A stretch of DNA of 64,000 bases from an uncultured SAR86 cluster bacterium (GTDB lineage: Bacteria; Pseudomonadota; Gammaproteobacteria; Magnimaribacterales; D2472), in NCBI GenBank assembly GCA_902563835.1, contig CACEZB010000004.1, forward strand, positions 342 to 64,341, given 5' to 3'. Shown piece after piece: positions 24,667-33,053 of this stretch. The notes below the pieces were generated by a model. That model made no database searches. It worked only from the letters and a program-made list of their open reading frames with translations, and was not told the origin of the DNA. Each line of letters begins with the position of its first letter. Within the stretch, counting starts at the first letter, position 1. Both the position numbers and the translations under genes were made by a program.

Positions 24667-25451
24667 TGCTTCCATTCTATTTGTTAACTTTTTTTGCAGC
24701 TTTACCTATTCTTGCATATGTCCTAGCACAGAAGACCAATAATAAAGGATTGGTTATTGGTTTTACTACAATAGTTCTATCTTTATGTTTGGTAGTATTT
24801 GTTAGTAAATTTGCAATATTGGGAAGTCTTCAAAAACAAATATTAAATAATAAGATTTTTGACCAAATATATGTTGATTCAAAAATTTCAAGTGAGCATT
24901 TAAAAGAAATAGAAACTCTTCTTAATGAGGATGAATTAAAGAATTGGTTAGTTGGACTTACCACCGAAGCAATTAATTTAAATAAGCTAAATTCAGCTGA
25001 AAGTTTAATAACATTCTCTGAAAGGTTTTTTATAACAAACAACGAAAAATTAATATTTTATGGGTTGTATACAAATTTAAGAGATGCAAGATTCCCTGAA
25101 TATAAGGATGTAGTCTTTTCAGTAGATATTAAATCTGACTTACCTTGCTCAATAAAAAGCGGCAATATAGATCTTTTTATAATGAACGGTCCTGACATAC
25201 CAATAGCAAAGAAGGAAATCGATGATATTAAAGACATGATATTAACTAATCTAGATAGTGTGATTCCTGGATTTGATTTGGCATCGGCCCACCTTAACCA
25301 AGAAACAATAGAATTCAATATTAAAATATCTTGTATTGATAATTCTGACTTTTTTTATGTTAAAAATCTCATAGTTTTAAATCAAACTAGTACTGCTAAT
25401 AAATATAAAATTAATTTAAATGAATGGTTAAAAACACCACAAGAGTTATAA
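24666..25451 (+). CDS. Membrane-anchored protein in the CcmI position (divergent)
   Basis: Two N-terminal TMs, helical middle, C-terminal GPDIPIAKK reminiscent of the CcmI C-domain; overlaps the ccmH stop. Confidence 0.5.
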   Translation: MLPFYLLTFFAALPILAYVLAQKTNNKGLVIGFTTIVLSLCLVVFVSKFAILGSLQKQILNNKIFDQIYVDSKISSEHLKEIETLLNEDELKNWLVGLTTEAINLNKLNSAESLITFSERFFITNNEKLIFYGLYTNLRDARFPEYKDVVFSVDIKSDLPCSIKSGNIDLFIMNGPDIPIAKKEIDDIKDMILTNLDSVIPGFDLASAHLNQETIEFNIKISCIDNSDFFYVKNLIVLNQTSTANKYKINLNEWLKTPQEL

Positions 25452-25475
25452 TATATTTAGTAAATAACTCTTAAA

Positions 25476-27674
25476 ATGCAGCTAAAACACATAAAACTAT
25501 CAGGTTTTAAAAGTTTCGTCGATCCAACGAAAATATCATTTCCTACTAATATGGTTGGAGTTGTCGGTCCGAATGGATGCGGAAAATCAAATGTTATAGA
25601 TGCTGTGCGTTGGGTGCTTGGAGAACTTTCAGCAAAAAATCTTCGTGGTGAATCAATGGCAGATGTTATTTTTAATGGCTCTGAAAAAAGAAAACCCTCT
25701 GGACAATGCAGCATTGAACTTCTTTTTGATAATTCTAGCGCCAAAATTGGTGGCGAGTATGCATCTTTTAATGAAGTTTCCATTAAAAGGGTTATGACAA
25801 GAGACGCTCAATCAGATTATTTTATTAATAATACAAAATGCAGGAGAAAAGATGTCCAAGATATTTTTCTTGGTACTGGTTTAGGCCCAAGCTCTTATGC
25901 AATTATCGAACAGGGAATGGTTAGCAAGCTTGTAAGTGCAAAACCAGATGAACTTAGAACCCATATTGAAGAAGCTGCTGGAGTATCCAAATATAGAGAA
26001 AGAAGAAGGGAAACAGAGTCAAGAATTAAACGCACAAAAGAAAATCTCTCAAGAGTAAAAGATATTCGTGATGAAATTGGAAGACTTATTAGAAGATTAG
26101 AAAATCAAGCCAAAGCCGCAGATAAGTACAATCAACTTAAAAAAGATAAAACAAAATTAGAGCTTGATAAAGCTATATTATTTTCGATGGAAGCAAAAAA
26201 TAATCGAGATAAATTACAGAAGAAATTGGATGCGCATAATCGTGACCTGAAAATTAAAAATGCTGAATCAGAAACAATCCAATCGCAAATAGATCAATTT
26301 AGAACTGAAAATGAGTCCCTATTGAGTGAATATGAATTAGCGCAAAAGAATTTCTATGCAGTTGGTGCAGAAATTGCAAAAAGAGAAGCCAATTTACAAA
26401 ATATTAATAAATCAGAATCAGAGACTAAATATAGTCTTCAAAAAGCAAAAGATAATTATGAAAAAGCCAAAGAAACTGAGAAAAATTTTGATGAATTAAG
26501 TCCTAGTGAGAAAGCTATGCATATTCTGGATAGTATCATCCTTACAATAGATAAATTCAATATTAATAATGAAAGTATTAGAGAAAAAGCTATGGAGCTT
26601 AAAAATTTACTTACAGAAATTTTAGATATTGCATCAGCTCAATCTAAAACATTAACTGATGAATATCTTTCTCGTCAAAATGACTTAGAAGAACAAATCG
26701 AGGAAGCAGAAAAACTTAAGAGTTCTATCCAAGATGAAATGAAAGACTTTGTTAGTAAAAGCTCAGATGCAGAGTCAATTCTAGTCGCGCTGAGACAAAA
26801 ACAATCAAAATTTAATGATGAATTAAGAAATCTAGAAAATAAAAAATCTATCGCAGATTTAGACTCTAAATCTATTTCTGAAAAAATAACAAATATTCGT
26901 CTTGAACTTAAAACATATGAAATAAATTTAGATAATTCAAATAAAAAAATTAAGGAAGCTGGTATAGATATTGATACTGTTAATTTTTCAGATTATGAAG
27001 ATACGACATTAGATGAAATCGAAGATAGCTTAACTGCTATAGAGACTAAAATAATTAGATTGGGTGCAATTAACTTAGCTGCACCAGAAGAAATCGCGGA
27101 TGAATCAAAAAGAAAAGAAGAATTAGATGAGCAATACAATGACCTTACAGAAGCATTAGATAAACTTAATGGCGCTATTAAGAAAATTGATAACGAAACA
27201 AAAACAATATTCAAAGATAGTTTTGATGCTGTCAATTTAAAACTTAAAGAGATGTTCCCAAAGTTATTTGGGGGAGGTGTTGCTGAGCTCACCTTAACCG
27301 ATGATGATCCATTGCATGCTGGAGTAGTTTTAATGGCAAGACCTCCAGGAAAAAAGAATTCATCTATTTCACAATTATCTGGTGGAGAAAAAGCTTTAAC
27401 GGCTTTAGCTTTAGTATTTGCTATTTTTGATCTTAATCCAGCACCATTTTGCTTATTAGATGAAGTAGATGCACCTTTAGACGACTTAAACACTCTTCGA
27501 TTTATAAATATGGTTGAAGAAATGTCAAAGTCGATACAATTTATTTTTATTACTCATAATAAAGTTTCTATGGAGCGAAGTGATTATTTAATGGGAGTTA
27601 CAATGCAAGAGGCTGGTGTTTCAAGAATGGTATCCGTTGACGTCAATCAAGCACTCAAACTAGCTGAATCATAA
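25476..27674 (+). CDS. smc: Chromosome segregation protein SMC (shortened, no recognisable hinge)
   Basis: GFKSF, GPNGCGKSN, IIEQG Q-loop, EEAAG, LGAINL, LSGGEK, LDEVDAPLD, ITH; only 732 aa. Confidence 0.93.
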   Translation: MQLKHIKLSGFKSFVDPTKISFPTNMVGVVGPNGCGKSNVIDAVRWVLGELSAKNLRGESMADVIFNGSEKRKPSGQCSIELLFDNSSAKIGGEYASFNEVSIKRVMTRDAQSDYFINNTKCRRKDVQDIFLGTGLGPSSYAIIEQGMVSKLVSAKPDELRTHIEEAAGVSKYRERRRETESRIKRTKENLSRVKDIRDEIGRLIRRLENQAKAADKYNQLKKDKTKLELDKAILFSMEAKNNRDKLQKKLDAHNRDLKIKNAESETIQSQIDQFRTENESLLSEYELAQKNFYAVGAEIAKREANLQNINKSESETKYSLQKAKDNYEKAKETEKNFDELSPSEKAMHILDSIILTIDKFNINNESIREKAMELKNLLTEILDIASAQSKTLTDEYLSRQNDLEEQIEEAEKLKSSIQDEMKDFVSKSSDAESILVALRQKQSKFNDELRNLENKKSIADLDSKSISEKITNIRLELKTYEINLDNSNKKIKEAGIDIDTVNFSDYEDTTLDEIEDSLTAIETKIIRLGAINLAAPEEIADESKRKEELDEQYNDLTEALDKLNGAIKKIDNETKTIFKDSFDAVNLKLKEMFPKLFGGGVAELTLTDDDPLHAGVVLMARPPGKKNSSISQLSGGEKALTALALVFAIFDLNPAPFCLLDEVDAPLDDLNTLRFINMVEEMSKSIQFIFITHNKVSMERSDYLMGVTMQEAGVSRMVSVDVNQALKLAES

Positions 27675-28283
27675 ATGACTACCAATTCAGAAATTTATTT
27701 AATTGGATTAGCAGTATTAACATTTTTAATAATAGTATTTTTGTATATAAGAAAAATTTCGAACTCAAGCAAACTTAAACTTAGGATTGAAGAACAGTCT
27801 GATGCTATTGAATCTCCTGAGGTAGATATCAATAATCAACAATCCTTTGAATATGAGAACAGTAAGGAAGAGCAAGAGTTAGCCATATTAAATTTAATTT
27901 CTGTAGACAGGTCTATGTATGATATAGAACAGATCTTTGGATTTCTTACTAACTATGGTGCAAAAATTAACAACAAATTTTTTTCTTTCAATAATAAAGA
28001 TGGAATGGAAAGATTTAGAGTTATAAATGCACTAAATCCTGGAACTTTTAAAAATGATACAAAGACCTTTGCAATTGCAATTGTTGCAGATCTTATGAAG
28101 GTAGATGATCCATTAGATACAGTAAAACAAATGGTTGAATTTTCTATAAATTTTGCTGATAAATTTCATGCATCCCTTTGCGATGAAGAAAGGACTCCAA
28201 TTACGAAACAGATGATTTCACATATGGAATCCAGGGCTCAAGATGTAGAAAGAATAAAACAACTTTCTAACCATAATGATTAA
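27675..28283 (+). CDS. zipA: Cell division protein ZipA (compact)
   Basis: N-terminal TM plus C-terminal FtsZ-binding-like domain (FRVINALNPGTF, LCDEERTPIT); canonical position after smc. Confidence 0.8.
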   Translation: MTTNSEIYLIGLAVLTFLIIVFLYIRKISNSSKLKLRIEEQSDAIESPEVDINNQQSFEYENSKEEQELAILNLISVDRSMYDIEQIFGFLTNYGAKINNKFFSFNNKDGMERFRVINALNPGTFKNDTKTFAIAIVADLMKVDDPLDTVKQMVEFSINFADKFHASLCDEERTPITKQMISHMESRAQDVERIKQLSNHND

Positions 28284-28300
28284 TAAGGAATGTTAGTTGA

Positions 28301-29587
28301 ATGAATGATCCATGGAAAATTATCAAAGAATTAGAAAGCGATAATAGCCGTTTATTTAAAGAGGGTGTTGTTGAAAATAATTTGAATAATATAGATTTTC
28401 AAGAAGGTCTTTCAATGTGTTTAGATCCACTTATAACCTTTGGAGTAAAACAAGTTCCAGAATCAGAAGAAGATGGAGATGGCTTGAAATGGAATGACTT
28501 CAAGAAAAATGTTTATCTATTAATTGAAAGAAAAAAAACAGGTCATGCAGCTAGAGATTTAATAATTGACTTAATGAGTTCTGCTAAAAAAGATCAATGG
28601 AATAATTGGTATAGAAGAATATTAATAAAAGATCTAAGGTGCGGCGTGAGTGAGAAAACTGTCAATAATGTGGCAAAAAGGATGGATTTAGAATTTAAAG
28701 TTCCAATTTTTTCATGCATGCTTGCCCATGATGGTGCAAAACATCCAAAAAAGATAAAAGGAGATTGTTTAGTTGAATATAAATATGACGGAGTTAGAGT
28801 AATCGCTATAGTTAAGAATGGAAAAGCAACCTTATACAGTCGTAATGGAAAGATATTTCACAATTTCCCCCATATCGAGAATGCTTTAAGTAAATCAGAA
28901 TACAATAATATTGTATTTGATGGAGAAGTTATGAGCGATGATTTCCAAGCTTTAATGAAACAAGTTTATAGAAAATCAGGAGCTCAAACAGATGATGCTT
29001 ATCTTGCTCTTTTTGATATTCTTCCATTGAAAGAATTTAATGAAGGTAAAAGTAAACTTAGTTCAATTGAAAGAAAAGAGGAATTAAATAAATTATCAAA
29101 GAGTTTTGAAAATGCAATTAAATTAGTAGATTATGAAGTAATAAATTTTGATGAAAAGGATGGTCAGGATAAATTTGCAAGCATGAATAAAGAAGCTCTA
29201 GAAAAAGGTTTCGAAGGCTTGATGATCAAACCAAATGATAATTATTATGAATGCAAAAGAAGCCATGCATGGTTAAAAATCAAACCTTTTATTGAGGTTA
29301 CTTTAAAAATTATAGATATTCAGGAGGGTACTGGAAAACATTCCGGTAAGCTGGGCGCATTTCATGTAGAAGGTGATGATGATGGAAAATTCTTTTCATT
29401 AAGCGTTGGAAGTGGTTTAACTGACGAGGAAAGAGAGAAATTTTGGGCATCAAAAGACAAATTAATAGGAAGACTTGTTGAAATTAGAGCAGATGCAATA
29501 ACTCAAAGCATTGAAGGAGAACATTACAGCTTGAGATTCCCTAGATTCAAAAATTTTAGAGGTTTTAAAAAGGATGAAAAAATATAA
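28301..29587 (+). CDS. ATP-dependent DNA ligase (phage/T4-like architecture)
   Basis: Motif I EYKYDGVR, SRNGK, FDGE, FDIL, EGLMIK, KRSHAWLKIKP, VGSG, SLRFPRF; N-terminal domain with KDLRCG; no LigA Zn-finger/HhH/BRCT. Confidence 0.93.
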   Translation: MNDPWKIIKELESDNSRLFKEGVVENNLNNIDFQEGLSMCLDPLITFGVKQVPESEEDGDGLKWNDFKKNVYLLIERKKTGHAARDLIIDLMSSAKKDQWNNWYRRILIKDLRCGVSEKTVNNVAKRMDLEFKVPIFSCMLAHDGAKHPKKIKGDCLVEYKYDGVRVIAIVKNGKATLYSRNGKIFHNFPHIENALSKSEYNNIVFDGEVMSDDFQALMKQVYRKSGAQTDDAYLALFDILPLKEFNEGKSKLSSIERKEELNKLSKSFENAIKLVDYEVINFDEKDGQDKFASMNKEALEKGFEGLMIKPNDNYYECKRSHAWLKIKPFIEVTLKIIDIQEGTGKHSGKLGAFHVEGDDDGKFFSLSVGSGLTDEEREKFWASKDKLIGRLVEIRADAITQSIEGEHYSLRFPRFKNFRGFKKDEKI

Positions 29588-30185
29588 ATTTAATTATTTT
29601 TTATTTCTAATAGCAATTATTTTTATACAATCTTGTGCTACAAGACCGCCAGAAAATCCTGATAACATATGTTTAATTTTTAAAGAGAAAAAAAATTGGT
29701 ATAAGGCAGCAATTAGAAGTGAGAAGCGCTGGAAAATACCACCATATGTCTTAATGTCCTTTGTGTATCAGGAATCAAGTTTTAAATCTGATGCAAGGCC
29801 AGAAAGAGAAAAAATATTAGGTTTTATTCCTTGGTTTAGACCTTCTTCTGCTGTTGGCTATTCCCAGGCTTTAAAAAATACTTGGGAGGATTATAAAGAT
29901 GAGACTGGCAATAGTAGAGCAAATAGGAAAGATTTTAATGATTCAGCTGATTTTATTGGTTGGTATGCAAGTAAAGGATACTATCAAGGTTTTGAAAAAA
30001 CAGACGCTAGATCTTTATATCTTGCCTATCATGAAGGGTATGGAGGCTTTGAAAAGAAAACCTACAGAAAAAAACAGTGGTTGATTAAAGTTGCTGACAG
30101 AGTACAAGCCAAATCAACAAAATATCAAAAACAATATTGGGGATGCGCAAAAGAATTAAAAAGAAAAAGATTTTTATTTTTTTGA
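29574..30185 (+). CDS. Lipoprotein with transglycosylase SLT-like domain
   Basis: Lipobox IQSC, PPENPDNIC, YQESSF, SSAVGYSQA, YLAYHEG. Confidence 0.85.
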   Translation: MKKYKFNYFLFLIAIIFIQSCATRPPENPDNICLIFKEKKNWYKAAIRSEKRWKIPPYVLMSFVYQESSFKSDARPEREKILGFIPWFRPSSAVGYSQALKNTWEDYKDETGNSRANRKDFNDSADFIGWYASKGYYQGFEKTDARSLYLAYHEGYGGFEKKTYRKKQWLIKVADRVQAKSTKYQKQYWGCAKELKRKRFLFF

Positions 30186-33053
30186 CTAAATATTTCTTAT
30201 ATCAAAGTTCAGATTTTTAATTTCTTCAATATAACTTTCACCAGCAATTAATGATCTTTTTGATTCGTTGAATAAGTATTTTCTTGATACTTCAACAAGA
30301 TCGTCAATAGTGCAGCCTTTTACTTTAGATCTAAAGGCTAATCTTTTTTCTTTATCTTTGTTTTCGAGCATACTTTTAAAATCACTTATTGCTTCGCCAT
30401 AAGGTGACAGCGGCTTATCAATGCCAGATATCACACCTAGAATCCCTTCATCTAATTGATCTTGTGAAATATTTTTTATTGACCATTCCCTTGATTTTTT
30501 AAACTCATTAAAAGTTTCACTGCATCTAGGATCGCGATATGAGAAGAATTTAAAAATTTTATTATTTGAATCTTGTATTGCACCAGCACCATATGCGCCT
30601 CCTTTCTCTCTTATAGCTGGATGTAAATACCCCCATTTTAATACTTCTCCAAGTACAGTTAAGGTGGGCGCATCAGGATGAAATGAATCTACTGTAGCAA
30701 ATGCTTCAGCACAATAACAAACCTGAGCACCTGTTATCCATCCAATAGAATTTTCTTGAATATCAAGATAATTTTGAGTTTCAACATTGTTATCAGAGCC
30801 ATCAAATTCAAATTTAATCCTAGTTTTTTCCTGCTCAATAGATGATGCTGTAAAGGTATAAATAGGCGACATTCCTATTTTATTTTTTATTGAAGATAGT
30901 AAATTAATATATTTTATTAGATTATCATTTTCATTAATATTTTTTGATAATTTATTTGTATTTGAAATAAAGTTTAAACCTGAGACCATATCATTTGTTG
31001 CAGCAAGGTTGTTTATTTGCGCTCCAGCATTGCTCATAGCAAGGATATGACCATTTTGAATTAGAGATTTTTCATTATCTGAGTCTATAAAATTTAGCAG
31101 ATCTTTGATTCTATTTTCATTAGTAAAATCAGCTTCTAGAATAGTTTTGATTAATATATCCTGCATTTTGTTTTCATTCATTTCTAGTGATTTTGAAGTA
31201 ATTTTTAAAGCTAATTTATTTTCATTGTTGCCATCACTTGGTAACAGTATAAAATTTGAATAAATACCACCAGTTATAGCTGATTGTATTTTTTGAACTT
31301 CCTCGTAATCCATATTACTGAAGCCTATATTGGTGAGTGTACTTGCAAATAATGAGGCAATTTTGAACTCTTCAGTTGAAAGGTTAGAACATGGATAAAT
31401 TATTGAATGATATGTAATCCCATTTGTTCCAGTTTTATAAAAGTAATTATCTATATTTCCAGTCTTAGTTATAGTTGATTCTGCGTAATTTCTGATATGT
31501 GGAATATCTTCTTTTGTTACCTTTGGAAGCACTTCAGGGTCATCAATAGTTTCTTGTCTTTCTTTTAATTTTGATGAGAGGCTAATTATTTGTTGTTTAT
31601 CCTTTTCTGATAATTTTTTTGATTTTTGGGTAATTTTGTTTTTAATCCTTTCTTCATTCTTATTATTGAACTCTGGATCAGGAATTAAAGCATAATTTAC
31701 TCTATGATTATTTTTAATAATCCTTTCTTCAATTATTTTCTCAATATAATTTTCTTCTTTTAATTTGTCCTTAATAATTGAAAATGATGAATCTAGATCT
31801 AAAACTTTTAGCGGATCATCATTATGAATGCAAGCCGGCAGACAACTTAACATAATTTGAAGACCATAAGGCATCCCAGACCCAGTAATCTCTCTTTGTT
31901 TTATTTCTAATTGATGAAGGGAGGATTCAATAATATTTTTATCAATCCCTTTTTCTACAACATCTTTTAAACAATTCAATATTAAATCTTGGACCTCTTG
32001 TTGTTTATTAGATTCAACTCCCTCTAGGCCTGCTACAAAAACTAATTCTTTGTGATCAGCCTCAAGCCCAGTTAATGGAGAGAGTGATTTCCCAAGATTA
32101 GTTTTCTCAAGAGCTTTCTTAAGTGGCGATGCAGAATTATCTAATAATATATCAGTCATTAAAATTGACTCTAGCAATTCAACAGGGTTATGACTCTCGC
32201 CCAAAAGCCAGCTTAAGACCACATGATGATTGTTCTCATCATTTGGCATTGGATTATAAAATTCTTCAACAGTTTTGGGAGAAGTTATCCTATCTTCATT
32301 TTGAACATTAATTGATTGATTGGATGGCTCAAAATTAGTTAATACATTTTCGTTTATAAAACTTTGTAGTTCATCAACATCAATATTTCCATATGAAAAG
32401 AAAGTAGCGTTTGAAGGATGGTAATGTTTTTGATGGAAGTTGACTAAATTTTCATGAGTAAGGTCAATAATATTTTCTGGGTTTCCACCGCTATTATGTT
32501 TATATGTAGAAGATGGATATAAATGTTTTGATAATCCATGCCATAGTTGACTAGTTACAGTGCTCATAGCACCTTTCATCTCATTAAATACGACCCCTTT
32601 AACTTCTAATTCACTATTTATATTTTCTTGATCACTAAATTCAAGTCTATGACCCTCTTGATAGAAATCTAATTTATCTAGATTGGGGAAAAAGGATGAA
32701 TCAAGATATACACTTAGCAGGTTTTTAAAATCTTTATCATTAAGTGTAGCAAATGGATATGCAGTCCAATCGCTAGATGTAAATGCATTCATAAAAGTAT
32801 TAAGTGATCTTCGTATCATCATAAAAAATGGGTCCCTAACAGGATATTTTTTAGATCCACAGAGTGCGGTATGTTCTAATATGTGTGCAACACCGGTAGA
32901 ATCTTCAGGTATCGTCCTAAAAGCAACCATAAATACTTTTTCATCGCTATTAGAATCTAAATGAATATGCTTGCAATTAAATTCAGATTCAGTATATATT
33001 TGTGCATTGAGGTCTAATAATTTTATAAATTTTTGGTCTTCTAAATTAAACAT
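30186..33053 (-). CDS. M16C (insulinase family) metallopeptidase, presequence-protease-like
   Basis: GVAHILEHTALCGS (HxxEH), FMNAFT, GVVFNEMKG, REKGGAYG, SYRDP. Confidence 0.95.
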   Translation of the reverse strand: MFNLEDQKFIKLLDLNAQIYTESEFNCKHIHLDSNSDEKVFMVAFRTIPEDSTGVAHILEHTALCGSKKYPVRDPFFMMIRRSLNTFMNAFTSSDWTAYPFATLNDKDFKNLLSVYLDSSFFPNLDKLDFYQEGHRLEFSDQENINSELEVKGVVFNEMKGAMSTVTSQLWHGLSKHLYPSSTYKHNSGGNPENIIDLTHENLVNFHQKHYHPSNATFFSYGNIDVDELQSFINENVLTNFEPSNQSINVQNEDRITSPKTVEEFYNPMPNDENNHHVVLSWLLGESHNPVELLESILMTDILLDNSASPLKKALEKTNLGKSLSPLTGLEADHKELVFVAGLEGVESNKQQEVQDLILNCLKDVVEKGIDKNIIESSLHQLEIKQREITGSGMPYGLQIMLSCLPACIHNDDPLKVLDLDSSFSIIKDKLKEENYIEKIIEERIIKNNHRVNYALIPDPEFNNKNEERIKNKITQKSKKLSEKDKQQIISLSSKLKERQETIDDPEVLPKVTKEDIPHIRNYAESTITKTGNIDNYFYKTGTNGITYHSIIYPCSNLSTEEFKIASLFASTLTNIGFSNMDYEEVQKIQSAITGGIYSNFILLPSDGNNENKLALKITSKSLEMNENKMQDILIKTILEADFTNENRIKDLLNFIDSDNEKSLIQNGHILAMSNAGAQINNLAATNDMVSGLNFISNTNKLSKNINENDNLIKYINLLSSIKNKIGMSPIYTFTASSIEQEKTRIKFEFDGSDNNVETQNYLDIQENSIGWITGAQVCYCAEAFATVDSFHPDAPTLTVLGEVLKWGYLHPAIREKGGAYGAGAIQDSNNKIFKFFSYRDPRCSETFNEFKKSREWSIKNISQDQLDEGILGVISGIDKPLSPYGEAISDFKSMLENKDKEKRLAFRSKVKGCTIDDLVEVSRKYLFNESKRSLIAGESYIEEIKNLNFDIRNI

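Follow-up and report, generated by a model that had tools for sequence, protein, structure and literature searches.

The 64,000-nucleotide stretch of DNA analysed here (hereafter, the window) comes from an uncultured SAR86 cluster bacterium (contig CACEZB010000004.1) and carries, at 28301..29587 on the + strand, a gene for an ATP-dependent DNA ligase. The gene lies in the chromosomal slot that is filled in other SAR86 genomes by ligA, the gene for the NAD+-dependent ligase LigA. We think it very likely that ligA was replaced in situ in this SAR86 lineage by an ATP-dependent ligase derived from a T4-like phage, and that the incoming enzyme is now the sole, replicative ligase of the cell.

Comparison of 31 loci reveals that the two ligases share one chromosomal position. 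All ten LigA loci, six from other families and four from the window's family, are flanked by smc and by the gene for an SLT transglycosylase, with zipA detected in nine; all 21 ATP-ligase loci (20 genomes, four genera) follow the order smc–zipA–ligase–SLT–PreP, and smc and SLT are present at every one of the 31. Twenty other genomes keep the window's ligase in this position, with identities of 72–97%, and one- and two-contig assemblies are among the genomes with this arrangement. The conservation of the ligase and of its position is beyond chance by far. An 18-kb stretch extending from ccmF to an alkyl sulfatase gene is collinear in seven genomes of both ligase types. In three LigA/ATP-ligase pairs, DNA homology stops near the 3′ end of zipA (in two pairs, 25–50 bp before that end) and restarts 30–35 bp into SLT in two pairs, or about 300 bp into it (G061/G062), which indicates that the swap took place open reading frame (ORF) for ORF. 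The in situ, non-orthologous replacement of ligA that the original prediction proposed is borne out by these common flanks.

The two ligases were not found together in any genome. LigA was detected as the NAD-ligase adenylation family PF01653, a control for which matched in 11 of 14 well-known genomes, and the ATP-dependent type as PF01068 or with the window's ligase as query. PF01653 has no match in the window's own genome (73.2% complete) or in any of 27 other genomes of its genus, seven of which are at least 90% complete. A first survey took in 41 genomes of the order. LigA was not detected in the window's own genome or in the 24 others of its genus but was present in each of the 16 that belong to the other three families; the window's ligase was found in 19 of the 24 and in its own genome, and in none of the 16. 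The four families among the surveyed genomes agree with the four family-level lineages of SAR86 given in a passage of PMC11582366. HIMB1674, the only SAR86 isolate met in the literature searches, is placed by the same paper outside the window's family; going by the survey, its family would be expected to have LigA. A search within the family, comprising 48 genomes at least 85% complete and the window's own (n = 49), gave PF01653 only in 23 genomes, PF01068 only in 23, both in none and neither in three. These three cases are assembly problems at the locus: the G053 contig begins inside LigA, of which residues 363–720 are present, and counting this partial gene brings LigA to 24 of 49; the ligase locus of G066 is a chimeric inverted join; and G003 is also without the SLT flank. 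Over 82 distinct genomes of the SAR86 order, 40 have LigA, 36 have the ATP-dependent ligase, six have neither and none has both. The 23 family genomes with an ATP-dependent ligase have exactly one PF01068 match apiece; in the window's own genome, which is one of the 23, the match is the window's ORF. The window's ligase is the only DNA ligase detected in its genome. In the LigA profile search, PF01653 was thus found in none of the 28 genomes of the genus and in none with the ATP-dependent ligase, as the original prediction implied.

The join in G066 (G066:C3, L122) runs from PreP residues 1–398 to SLT residues 57–203 and on to PreP residues 498–955 on the other strand. It leaves an assembly of 94% completeness without a ligase slot and is likely to be an assembly artefact.

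The ligase ORF is intact, begins with ATG 17 bp past zipA and occupies exactly 28301–29587 (+). On the strength of Pfam and structure matches, it encodes a 428-residue ATP-dependent ligase of the three-domain Pmar-Lig (AD-Lig P)/T4-like type, the translation of which contains all four motifs originally quoted for it (KYDG, EGLMIK, WLKIKP and SLRFPRF). Pfam recognises DNA_ligase_A_M (PF01068) and DNA_ligase_OB_2 (PF14743) alone. The first defines the nucleotidyltransferase (adenylation) domain, residues 149–328 (28745..29284, +; E = 1.7e-23), within which lies the motif I lysine K161 (codon 28781-28783, +); the second defines an OB-fold domain of the OB_2 type, residues 342–420 (29324..29560, +; E = 1.4e-11), with motif VI (LRFPRF). 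No polymerase, nuclease or phosphoesterase domain was found by Pfam in the 428-residue protein, and no Pfam family covers its N-terminal 140 residues or so. The best solved relatives are 6RAU, 6RAS, 6RAR and 6RCE (E = 1.2e-136 to 8e-135), which a passage of the NAR 2020 review identifies as the Prochlorococcus marinus ligase Pmar-Lig. The alignment with 6RAU places query residues 6–428 on chain residues 10–442 (E = 1.2e-136) and covers the N-terminal domain; this part of the protein (approximately residues 1–140; 28301..28720, +), aligned from residue 6, is predicted to form an α-helical DNA-binding domain. A 136-residue chain, 5wfy_A, matches residues 6–124 weakly (E = 5.9e-4), and the T4 DNA ligase structure 6DT1 (6dt1_A) matches the ligase with E = 1.3e-13. 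An alignment of 12 ligases of the family shows no variation at K161, D163, G164, R166, D207-G208-E209, E305, G306, K310, K326 and K328, nor at R412, F413 and P414 of motif VI. The N-terminus, MNDPWKIIKELESDNSR, is hydrophilic. The NCBIfam models for LigD, LigB, LigC and LigE all score far under their cut-offs; for example, TIGR02779 (LigD, non-homologous end joining (NHEJ)) scores 96.6 against 227.75 and NF006592 (LigE) 74.9 against 200. The earlier description of the protein, as a ligase with an N-terminal DNA-binding domain and with neither LigD polymerase/nuclease domains nor a signal peptide, is therefore upheld by the 6RAU alignment, the Pfam matches and the hydrophilic N-terminus, respectively.

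The GC content of the ligase gene is 30.7%, and that at third codon positions (GC3) is 19.8%, with the neighbouring genes at 18.7–21.3% GC3. As the composition of the ligase equals that of its neighbours, the replacement event must be old. The ligase gene is old and domesticated.

The closest relatives of the ligase outside the SAR86 family are viral. Among cultured phages, 2214 records matched, with identities of 29–34% among the 30 records listed and 34% for the best of these. IMG/VR contains 15 loci with related ligases at 41–64% identity, and the nearest protein-atlas clusters are 93–100% viral. On four of six contig groups checked, the ligase lies inside a T4-like replication module. Its neighbours are a T4-type clamp loader and a polymerase piece (L018), a UvsX-like recombinase and a gp41-like helicase (L019), a gp32-like single-stranded DNA-binding protein (L021) and gp46/47-like nuclease subunits (L028); on L023 and L024, they are families of unknown function or glycosyltransferases only. 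Judged by such neighbouring genes, the uncultured contigs appear to belong to T4-like phages. A further IMG/VR contig of 159 kb (L029) has a 52%-identical ligase near a NifU-like auxiliary gene and a 1145-residue tail-spike-like gene.

In a 110-row tree, all 28 ligases of the SAR86 family form one clade with a Shimodaira–Hasegawa-like approximate likelihood ratio test (SH-aLRT) value of 100, which is nested within sequences from viral contigs (93, then 98). Two further, separate clades, each with a value of 100, comprise the Prochlorococcus ligases and four alphaproteobacterial ligases, respectively. Omitted from this tree were L027, L030, L032, L041, L059, L079, L080, L081 and L083, which are shorter than 400 residues; L082 (27% identity); representatives outside 400–480 residues; and the exact duplicates L021, L022, L025, L026, L042, L049, L057, L060 and L069. 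A mixture-model tree of 22 rows, 15 of them family ligases, places the SAR86 clade (100/99) inside a viral grade. Since the SAR86 ligases form one clade apart from that of Prochlorococcus, they appear to have been acquired independently, and we conclude that a T4-like phage was probably the source of all of them, in one capture separate from the event in Prochlorococcus. Both the nearest extra-family sequences, on IMG/VR contigs with T4-type replication genes, and the nesting of the family clade among the viral-contig sequences favour the viral origin that had been put forward for the gene.

It is conceivable that the gene came instead from another bacterium, such as Prochlorococcus or another bacterioplankter, or that the phages took it from SAR86. 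Relatives at 48–57% identity occur in Prochlorococcus, in an alphaproteobacterial clade and in several other metagenome-assembled genomes (MAGs), the viral branches of the backbone are moderately supported and the IMG/VR contigs are predictions. We nevertheless consider these routes unlikely. The ligases of the T4-module contigs are 57–64% identical to the SAR86 ligase where the genes are fully matched (L028, 52%), compared with 52–53% for those of Prochlorococcus; the Prochlorococcus clade stands apart with a support of 100; the SAR86 clade lies within two successive viral-only grades (93, 98); and T4-like replication modules surround the ligase on four of the six contig groups.

The function of the enzyme can be modelled on that of Pmar-Lig. 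A phage-captured ATP-dependent ligase would have replaced ligA, ORF for ORF, in an operon-like smc–zipA–[ligase]–SLT array. By homology with Pmar-Lig, the ligase would adenylate itself on K161 using ATP, pass the AMP to the 5′ phosphate at a nick and seal the nick while encircling the DNA; its substrates would be Okazaki fragments and repair nicks. Near-complete genomes of the lineage contain no other detectable ligase, so that this enzyme would have to serve both. If some other, unrecognised enzyme sealed the Okazaki fragments, the chromosomal ATP-dependent ligase would serve repair only. The ligase searches covered PF01653, PF01068 and a LigA query, and the function is read from homology, so that there is some room for such an enzyme. 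We judge it to be distinctly improbable, as neither of the two ligase superfamily domains gave a second match in genomes of 1.2–1.3 Mb that are 90–97% complete, the gene occupies the position of ligA in the operon, and the Prochlorococcus homologue is a more than 10-fold better sealer than the low-light NAD+-dependent ligase (ND-ligase) (bioRxiv 10.1101/2020.05.11.089284).

Even less probable is that LigA sits in the unassembled 27% of this MAG and that the ATP-dependent ligase is an accessory repair enzyme. The window's contig belongs to a 0.99-Mb assembly of 31 contigs, 73.2% complete and with approximately 31% GC, and accessory ATP-dependent ligases beside LigA are common, as exemplified by the Neomarinimicrobiota record RS350, which has both a 694-residue LigA and a relative of the window's ligase. 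However, the ancestral ligA slot is filled by the ATP-dependent ligase, LigA is found in none of the 28 genomes of the genus (seven at least 90% complete) and the two ligases coexist in none of the 82 genomes of the order. Moreover, a full-length LigA of the family used as query has no match at E ≤ 1 in five genomes, the window's own and four relatives 90–97% complete, a set that includes the single-contig assemblies G064 and G073, and the proposal is close to refuted. Ku (PF02735), said at the outset not to accompany the ligase, was likewise not found in five genomes, the window's own and four relatives of 90–97% completeness. The idea that the ligase belongs to a prophage, a misbinned phage contig or a chimeric assembly, prompted by its closest extra-family relatives on viral contigs and its viral neighbours in the atlas, is refuted by synteny and scarcely merits consideration, since the gene lies mid-contig among cellular genes (ccmF, smc, zipA, SLT transglycosylase and PreP peptidase) with no phage gene nearby and, as was claimed, no integrase or prophage context, its surroundings are collinear over 18 kb in seven genomes, the same arrangement recurs in 20 others and its composition is host-like.

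A number of points weigh against the replacement of ligA by a phage ligase as set out above. The window's own genome is only 73.2% complete, and for this reason the absence of LigA here rests on the occupied locus and on the relatives. Six genomes of the genus are without either ligase; four of them are 72–78% complete, and in G003 (90%) and G066 (94%) the locus is unassembled. In G019, which is 96% complete, the ligase is broken by one frameshift; as the adjacent PreP is also split, this is probably an assembly indel error. The 110-row tree was obtained with the LG+G4 model in a quick search, carries SH-aLRT support only and is rooted on three cultured-phage ligases, and in the 22-row tree the backbone among the viral sequences reaches only 85–90. 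The phage-to-cell direction would follow from the nesting together with the rooting on distant phage ligases. ATP use and nick sealing by the SAR86 ligase are expected by analogy with Pmar-Lig, and a replicative role is suggested by its exclusivity and position.

Three genera of the family are mixed in ligase type. In g13, G058 is of the ATP type and G059 has LigA; in g14, G061 is of the ATP type and three genomes have LigA; and in g16, 11 genomes are of the ATP type and G075 has LigA. On a tree of ThrS from 30 genomes, ligase type needs at least four changes, and a single clade of ATP-type genomes is rejected by the approximately unbiased (AU) test (p = 8e-70); this tree is of one gene only, some 12–23 kb away from the ligase; its outgroup was not a clean one, and the groups were given their names post hoc. 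The LigA proteins of G059, G047 and G075 branch as ThrS does, which suggests vertical descent of LigA. The ATP-dependent ligase of G058, a member of g13, nests among the g16 ligases (100/100), and a group of g16 ligases without G058 is rejected (AU p = 4.6e-11). We conclude from this nesting that the ATP-dependent ligase moved between genera and there displaced LigA again. Transfer between genera plausibly took place by recombination through the conserved zipA/SLT flanks.

The single-contig genome G061 (g14; L120, L143) is unusual in that its ThrS match covers residues 1–338 only and groups with g1/g15, and the flanking smc, zipA and SLT show the same distance as in g14; recombination in the region, breakage of the gene or a chimeric assembly could account for this oddity. 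A link between loss of LigA and loss of PncC/CinA through nicotinamide mononucleotide recycling was considered and is not supported, as matches to PF02464 track genus and not ligase type. These matches, all of them weak (E ~1e-5), occur in 8/10 genomes of g1, 5/5 of g11 (LigA type), 2/2 of g13 and 12/12 of g16, and in 0/3 of g10, 0/9 of g12 and 0/2 of g17.

At the locus itself, the ligase gene is preceded by smc (25476..27674, +), which encodes a short, 732-residue SMC (TIGR02168, 1.3e-245), and by zipA (27675..28283, +; ZipA_C, 2.8e-12), the left flank of the swapped slot, which encodes 202 residues. The 17-bp spacer between zipA and the ligase (28284..28300, +), as read from the sequence, contains AAGGA, a putative Shine–Dalgarno-like element. 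The right flank is the SLT_4 lytic transglycosylase gene (29574..30185, +; PF19489, 7.2e-73), the start of which overlaps the end of the ligase gene by 14 nt; it is followed on the − strand by a PreP-like M16 peptidase gene (30186..33053), which is a conserved neighbour. The 1181-position TIGR02168 model aligns with the window's SMC (25476-27674) in two stretches, and Pfam does not list the SMC hinge family for the 732-residue protein. The short form of smc is common to G058, G061 and G062, and in G075, G077, G059 and G047 the gene encodes about 1000 residues with an extra internal segment. The 202-residue ZipA is very short, scoring 24.6 bits on the ZipA equivalog (cut-off 119.65), with its C-terminal FtsZ-binding domain still recognised. 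A promoter scan of 25000–30600 returned 30 promoter-like sites against 26.8 expected and is uninformative, and a terminator scan of the same interval found none on the + strand. Pieces of the ligase ORF occur on metatranscriptome contigs in four runs from four studies; one piece of 264 nt has no mismatches, another of 394 nt spans the ligase/SLT junction, and parts of the ligase stretch are left uncovered. These pieces attest presence in RNA libraries, where DNA carry-over is possible, rather than transcription, and lend weak support to a replicative role.

Public records titled 'Gammaproteobacteria bacterium TMED225/TMED226/SAT84/MED709' and 'Gamma proteobacterium SCGC AAA076-P13 / AAA168-P09' hold the ligase at 72–85% identity. 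AAA076-P13 and D2472 are named as SAR86 genera in a passage of PMC9771814, and the window's family appears to be the D2472 family of SAR86. The ligase type was also met on two short contigs, L059 (2.5 kb, 72% identity) in a record titled Aliarcobacter sp. and L061 (12.7 kb, 57%) in a Pacearchaeota record; in both cases a misbinned fragment of SAR86 or viral DNA is more probable than a gene native to the taxon named.

The alphaproteobacterial clade may represent a third independent replacement of LigA. PF01653 is absent from three of its records (AG-337-B08, AG-896-A16 and Rickettsiales MED657). Among relatives of AG-337-B08, with completeness and kinship unstated, 24 of the first 25 listed (0.8–2.0 Mb) are without PF01653 and 21 of the 25 have PF01068; LigA is present in all of the remaining 16. 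Genomes of this clade (among G082–G108) have one or two ATP-dependent ligases, a Pmar-type of approximately 440 residues and a form of approximately 530 residues. The context of the former (SPL-like radical SAM, 244-residue protein, ligase, MMPL transporter) is kept in four records, AG-337-B08, Rickettsiales MED657, MED768 and AG-896-A16 (L063, L076, L077 and L078). The LigA loci of three farther relatives (L123–L125) share no flanking gene with this ligase, so that they lend no support to an in situ swap in the clade. In the alphaproteobacterial group, the LigA adenylation family is matched in one genome alone, G098, a relative of G082; its frame of 661 residues is of the same length class as the LigA of one SAR86 family (661–663 residues), and contamination of the bin is a possible source.

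Such a replacement has a precedent in high-light Prochlorococcus, the sole exception on record so far, which is without a full ND-ligase, has AD-Lig P in the ND-ligase position and was presented as the first such bacterium (bioRxiv 10.1101/2020.05.11.089284). SAR86 is a second, independent and cleaner case of LigA replacement. New in comparison with Prochlorococcus are the presence of a sole ligase, the alternation of LigA and ATP-dependent ligase at one locus across a family and the probable third, alphaproteobacterial lineage. Full-text literature searches, with supplements outside their scope, found no report of ligA replacement in SAR86, and term searches within two SAR86/Magnimaribacterales genome papers found no mention of DNA ligase or 'replication'. 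In a passage of the NAR 2020 review, Pmar-Lig clusters with approximately 20 'proteobacterial and cyanobacterial' sequences and is still termed accessory.

A broader proposal, the chances of which we regard as evenly balanced, is that the cofactor type of the ligase is a trait under selection that bacterioplankton of the surface ocean can exchange: LigA would have been displaced by a T4-like phage ligase independently in at least three unrelated, streamlined lineages, namely high-light Prochlorococcus, D2472-type SAR86 and the alphaproteobacterial clade, and in SAR86 the phage ligase would behave as a cassette moving via the zipA/SLT flanks. If this is true, LigA-type and ATP-type SAR86 species coexist, and the textbook rule of replication with an NAD+-dependent ligase fails for a large fraction of the cells in the sunlit ocean; Pelagibacter and SAR86 together make up 22–24% of cells according to a passage of PMC9771814. 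There would then be a natural experiment on why other bacteria keep NAD+-dependent ligases. With sister species that differ only in the ligase filling one slot, the retention of the NAD+-dependent enzyme becomes a comparative and experimental problem. The SAR86 ligase would also illustrate how a gene of phage origin can assume a core role in replication.

Comparison with known systems sets the SAR86 ligase apart from the accessory ATP-dependent ligases of bacteria (LigD and LigC of NHEJ, LigB and LigE), with which it shares the PF01068 core. Unlike LigD, it has no polymerase or phosphoesterase domains and no Ku partner in the five genomes searched, and whereas LigE has a signal peptide, no DNA-binding domain and about 260–290 residues, the SAR86 ligase has 428 residues, an N-terminal domain and a hydrophilic N-terminus. 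It is not an accessory enzyme, because LigA is absent. With NAD-dependent LigA it shares the slot, the core of the nucleotidyltransferase superfamily and presumably the cellular job; it differs in having no Ia, zinc-finger, HhH or BRCT domains and in its expected cofactor, ATP rather than NAD+. The T4-like phage ligases of the gp30 type (6DT1) resemble it in combining a helical DNA-binding domain with nucleotidyltransferase and OB domains; however, the SAR86 gene is chromosomal, in a cell-division/replication operon, and its best identity to the cultured-phage records listed is 34%. The ligase of T4 can substitute for the host enzyme in Salmonella and E. coli.

The closest counterpart is Pmar-Lig/AD-Lig P (PDB 6RAU, 6RAS, 6RAR and 6RCE; NAR 2019, PMC6698739), which has the same three-domain architecture and length as the SAR86 ligase. 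AD-Lig P is ATP-dependent, with nick sealing more than 10-fold above that of the low-light ND-ligase (bioRxiv 10.1101/2020.05.11.089284). In both cases, an ATP-dependent ligase occupies the ND-ligase position of relatives in a streamlined, low-GC bacterium of the surface ocean. The two belong to different phyla, however, and the locus is downstream of recA in Prochlorococcus and between zipA and SLT in SAR86. High-light Prochlorococcus strains also carry AD-Lig B, sometimes Lig W, and truncated ND-ligase fragments; in the complete record of strain SS51, ND-ligase is present only as fragments of 249 and 255 residues. In contrast, SAR86 has one ligase alone, with no ND-ligase fragments found by PF01653 or the LigA query, and LigA and the ATP-dependent ligase alternate among its close genera, with lateral spread.

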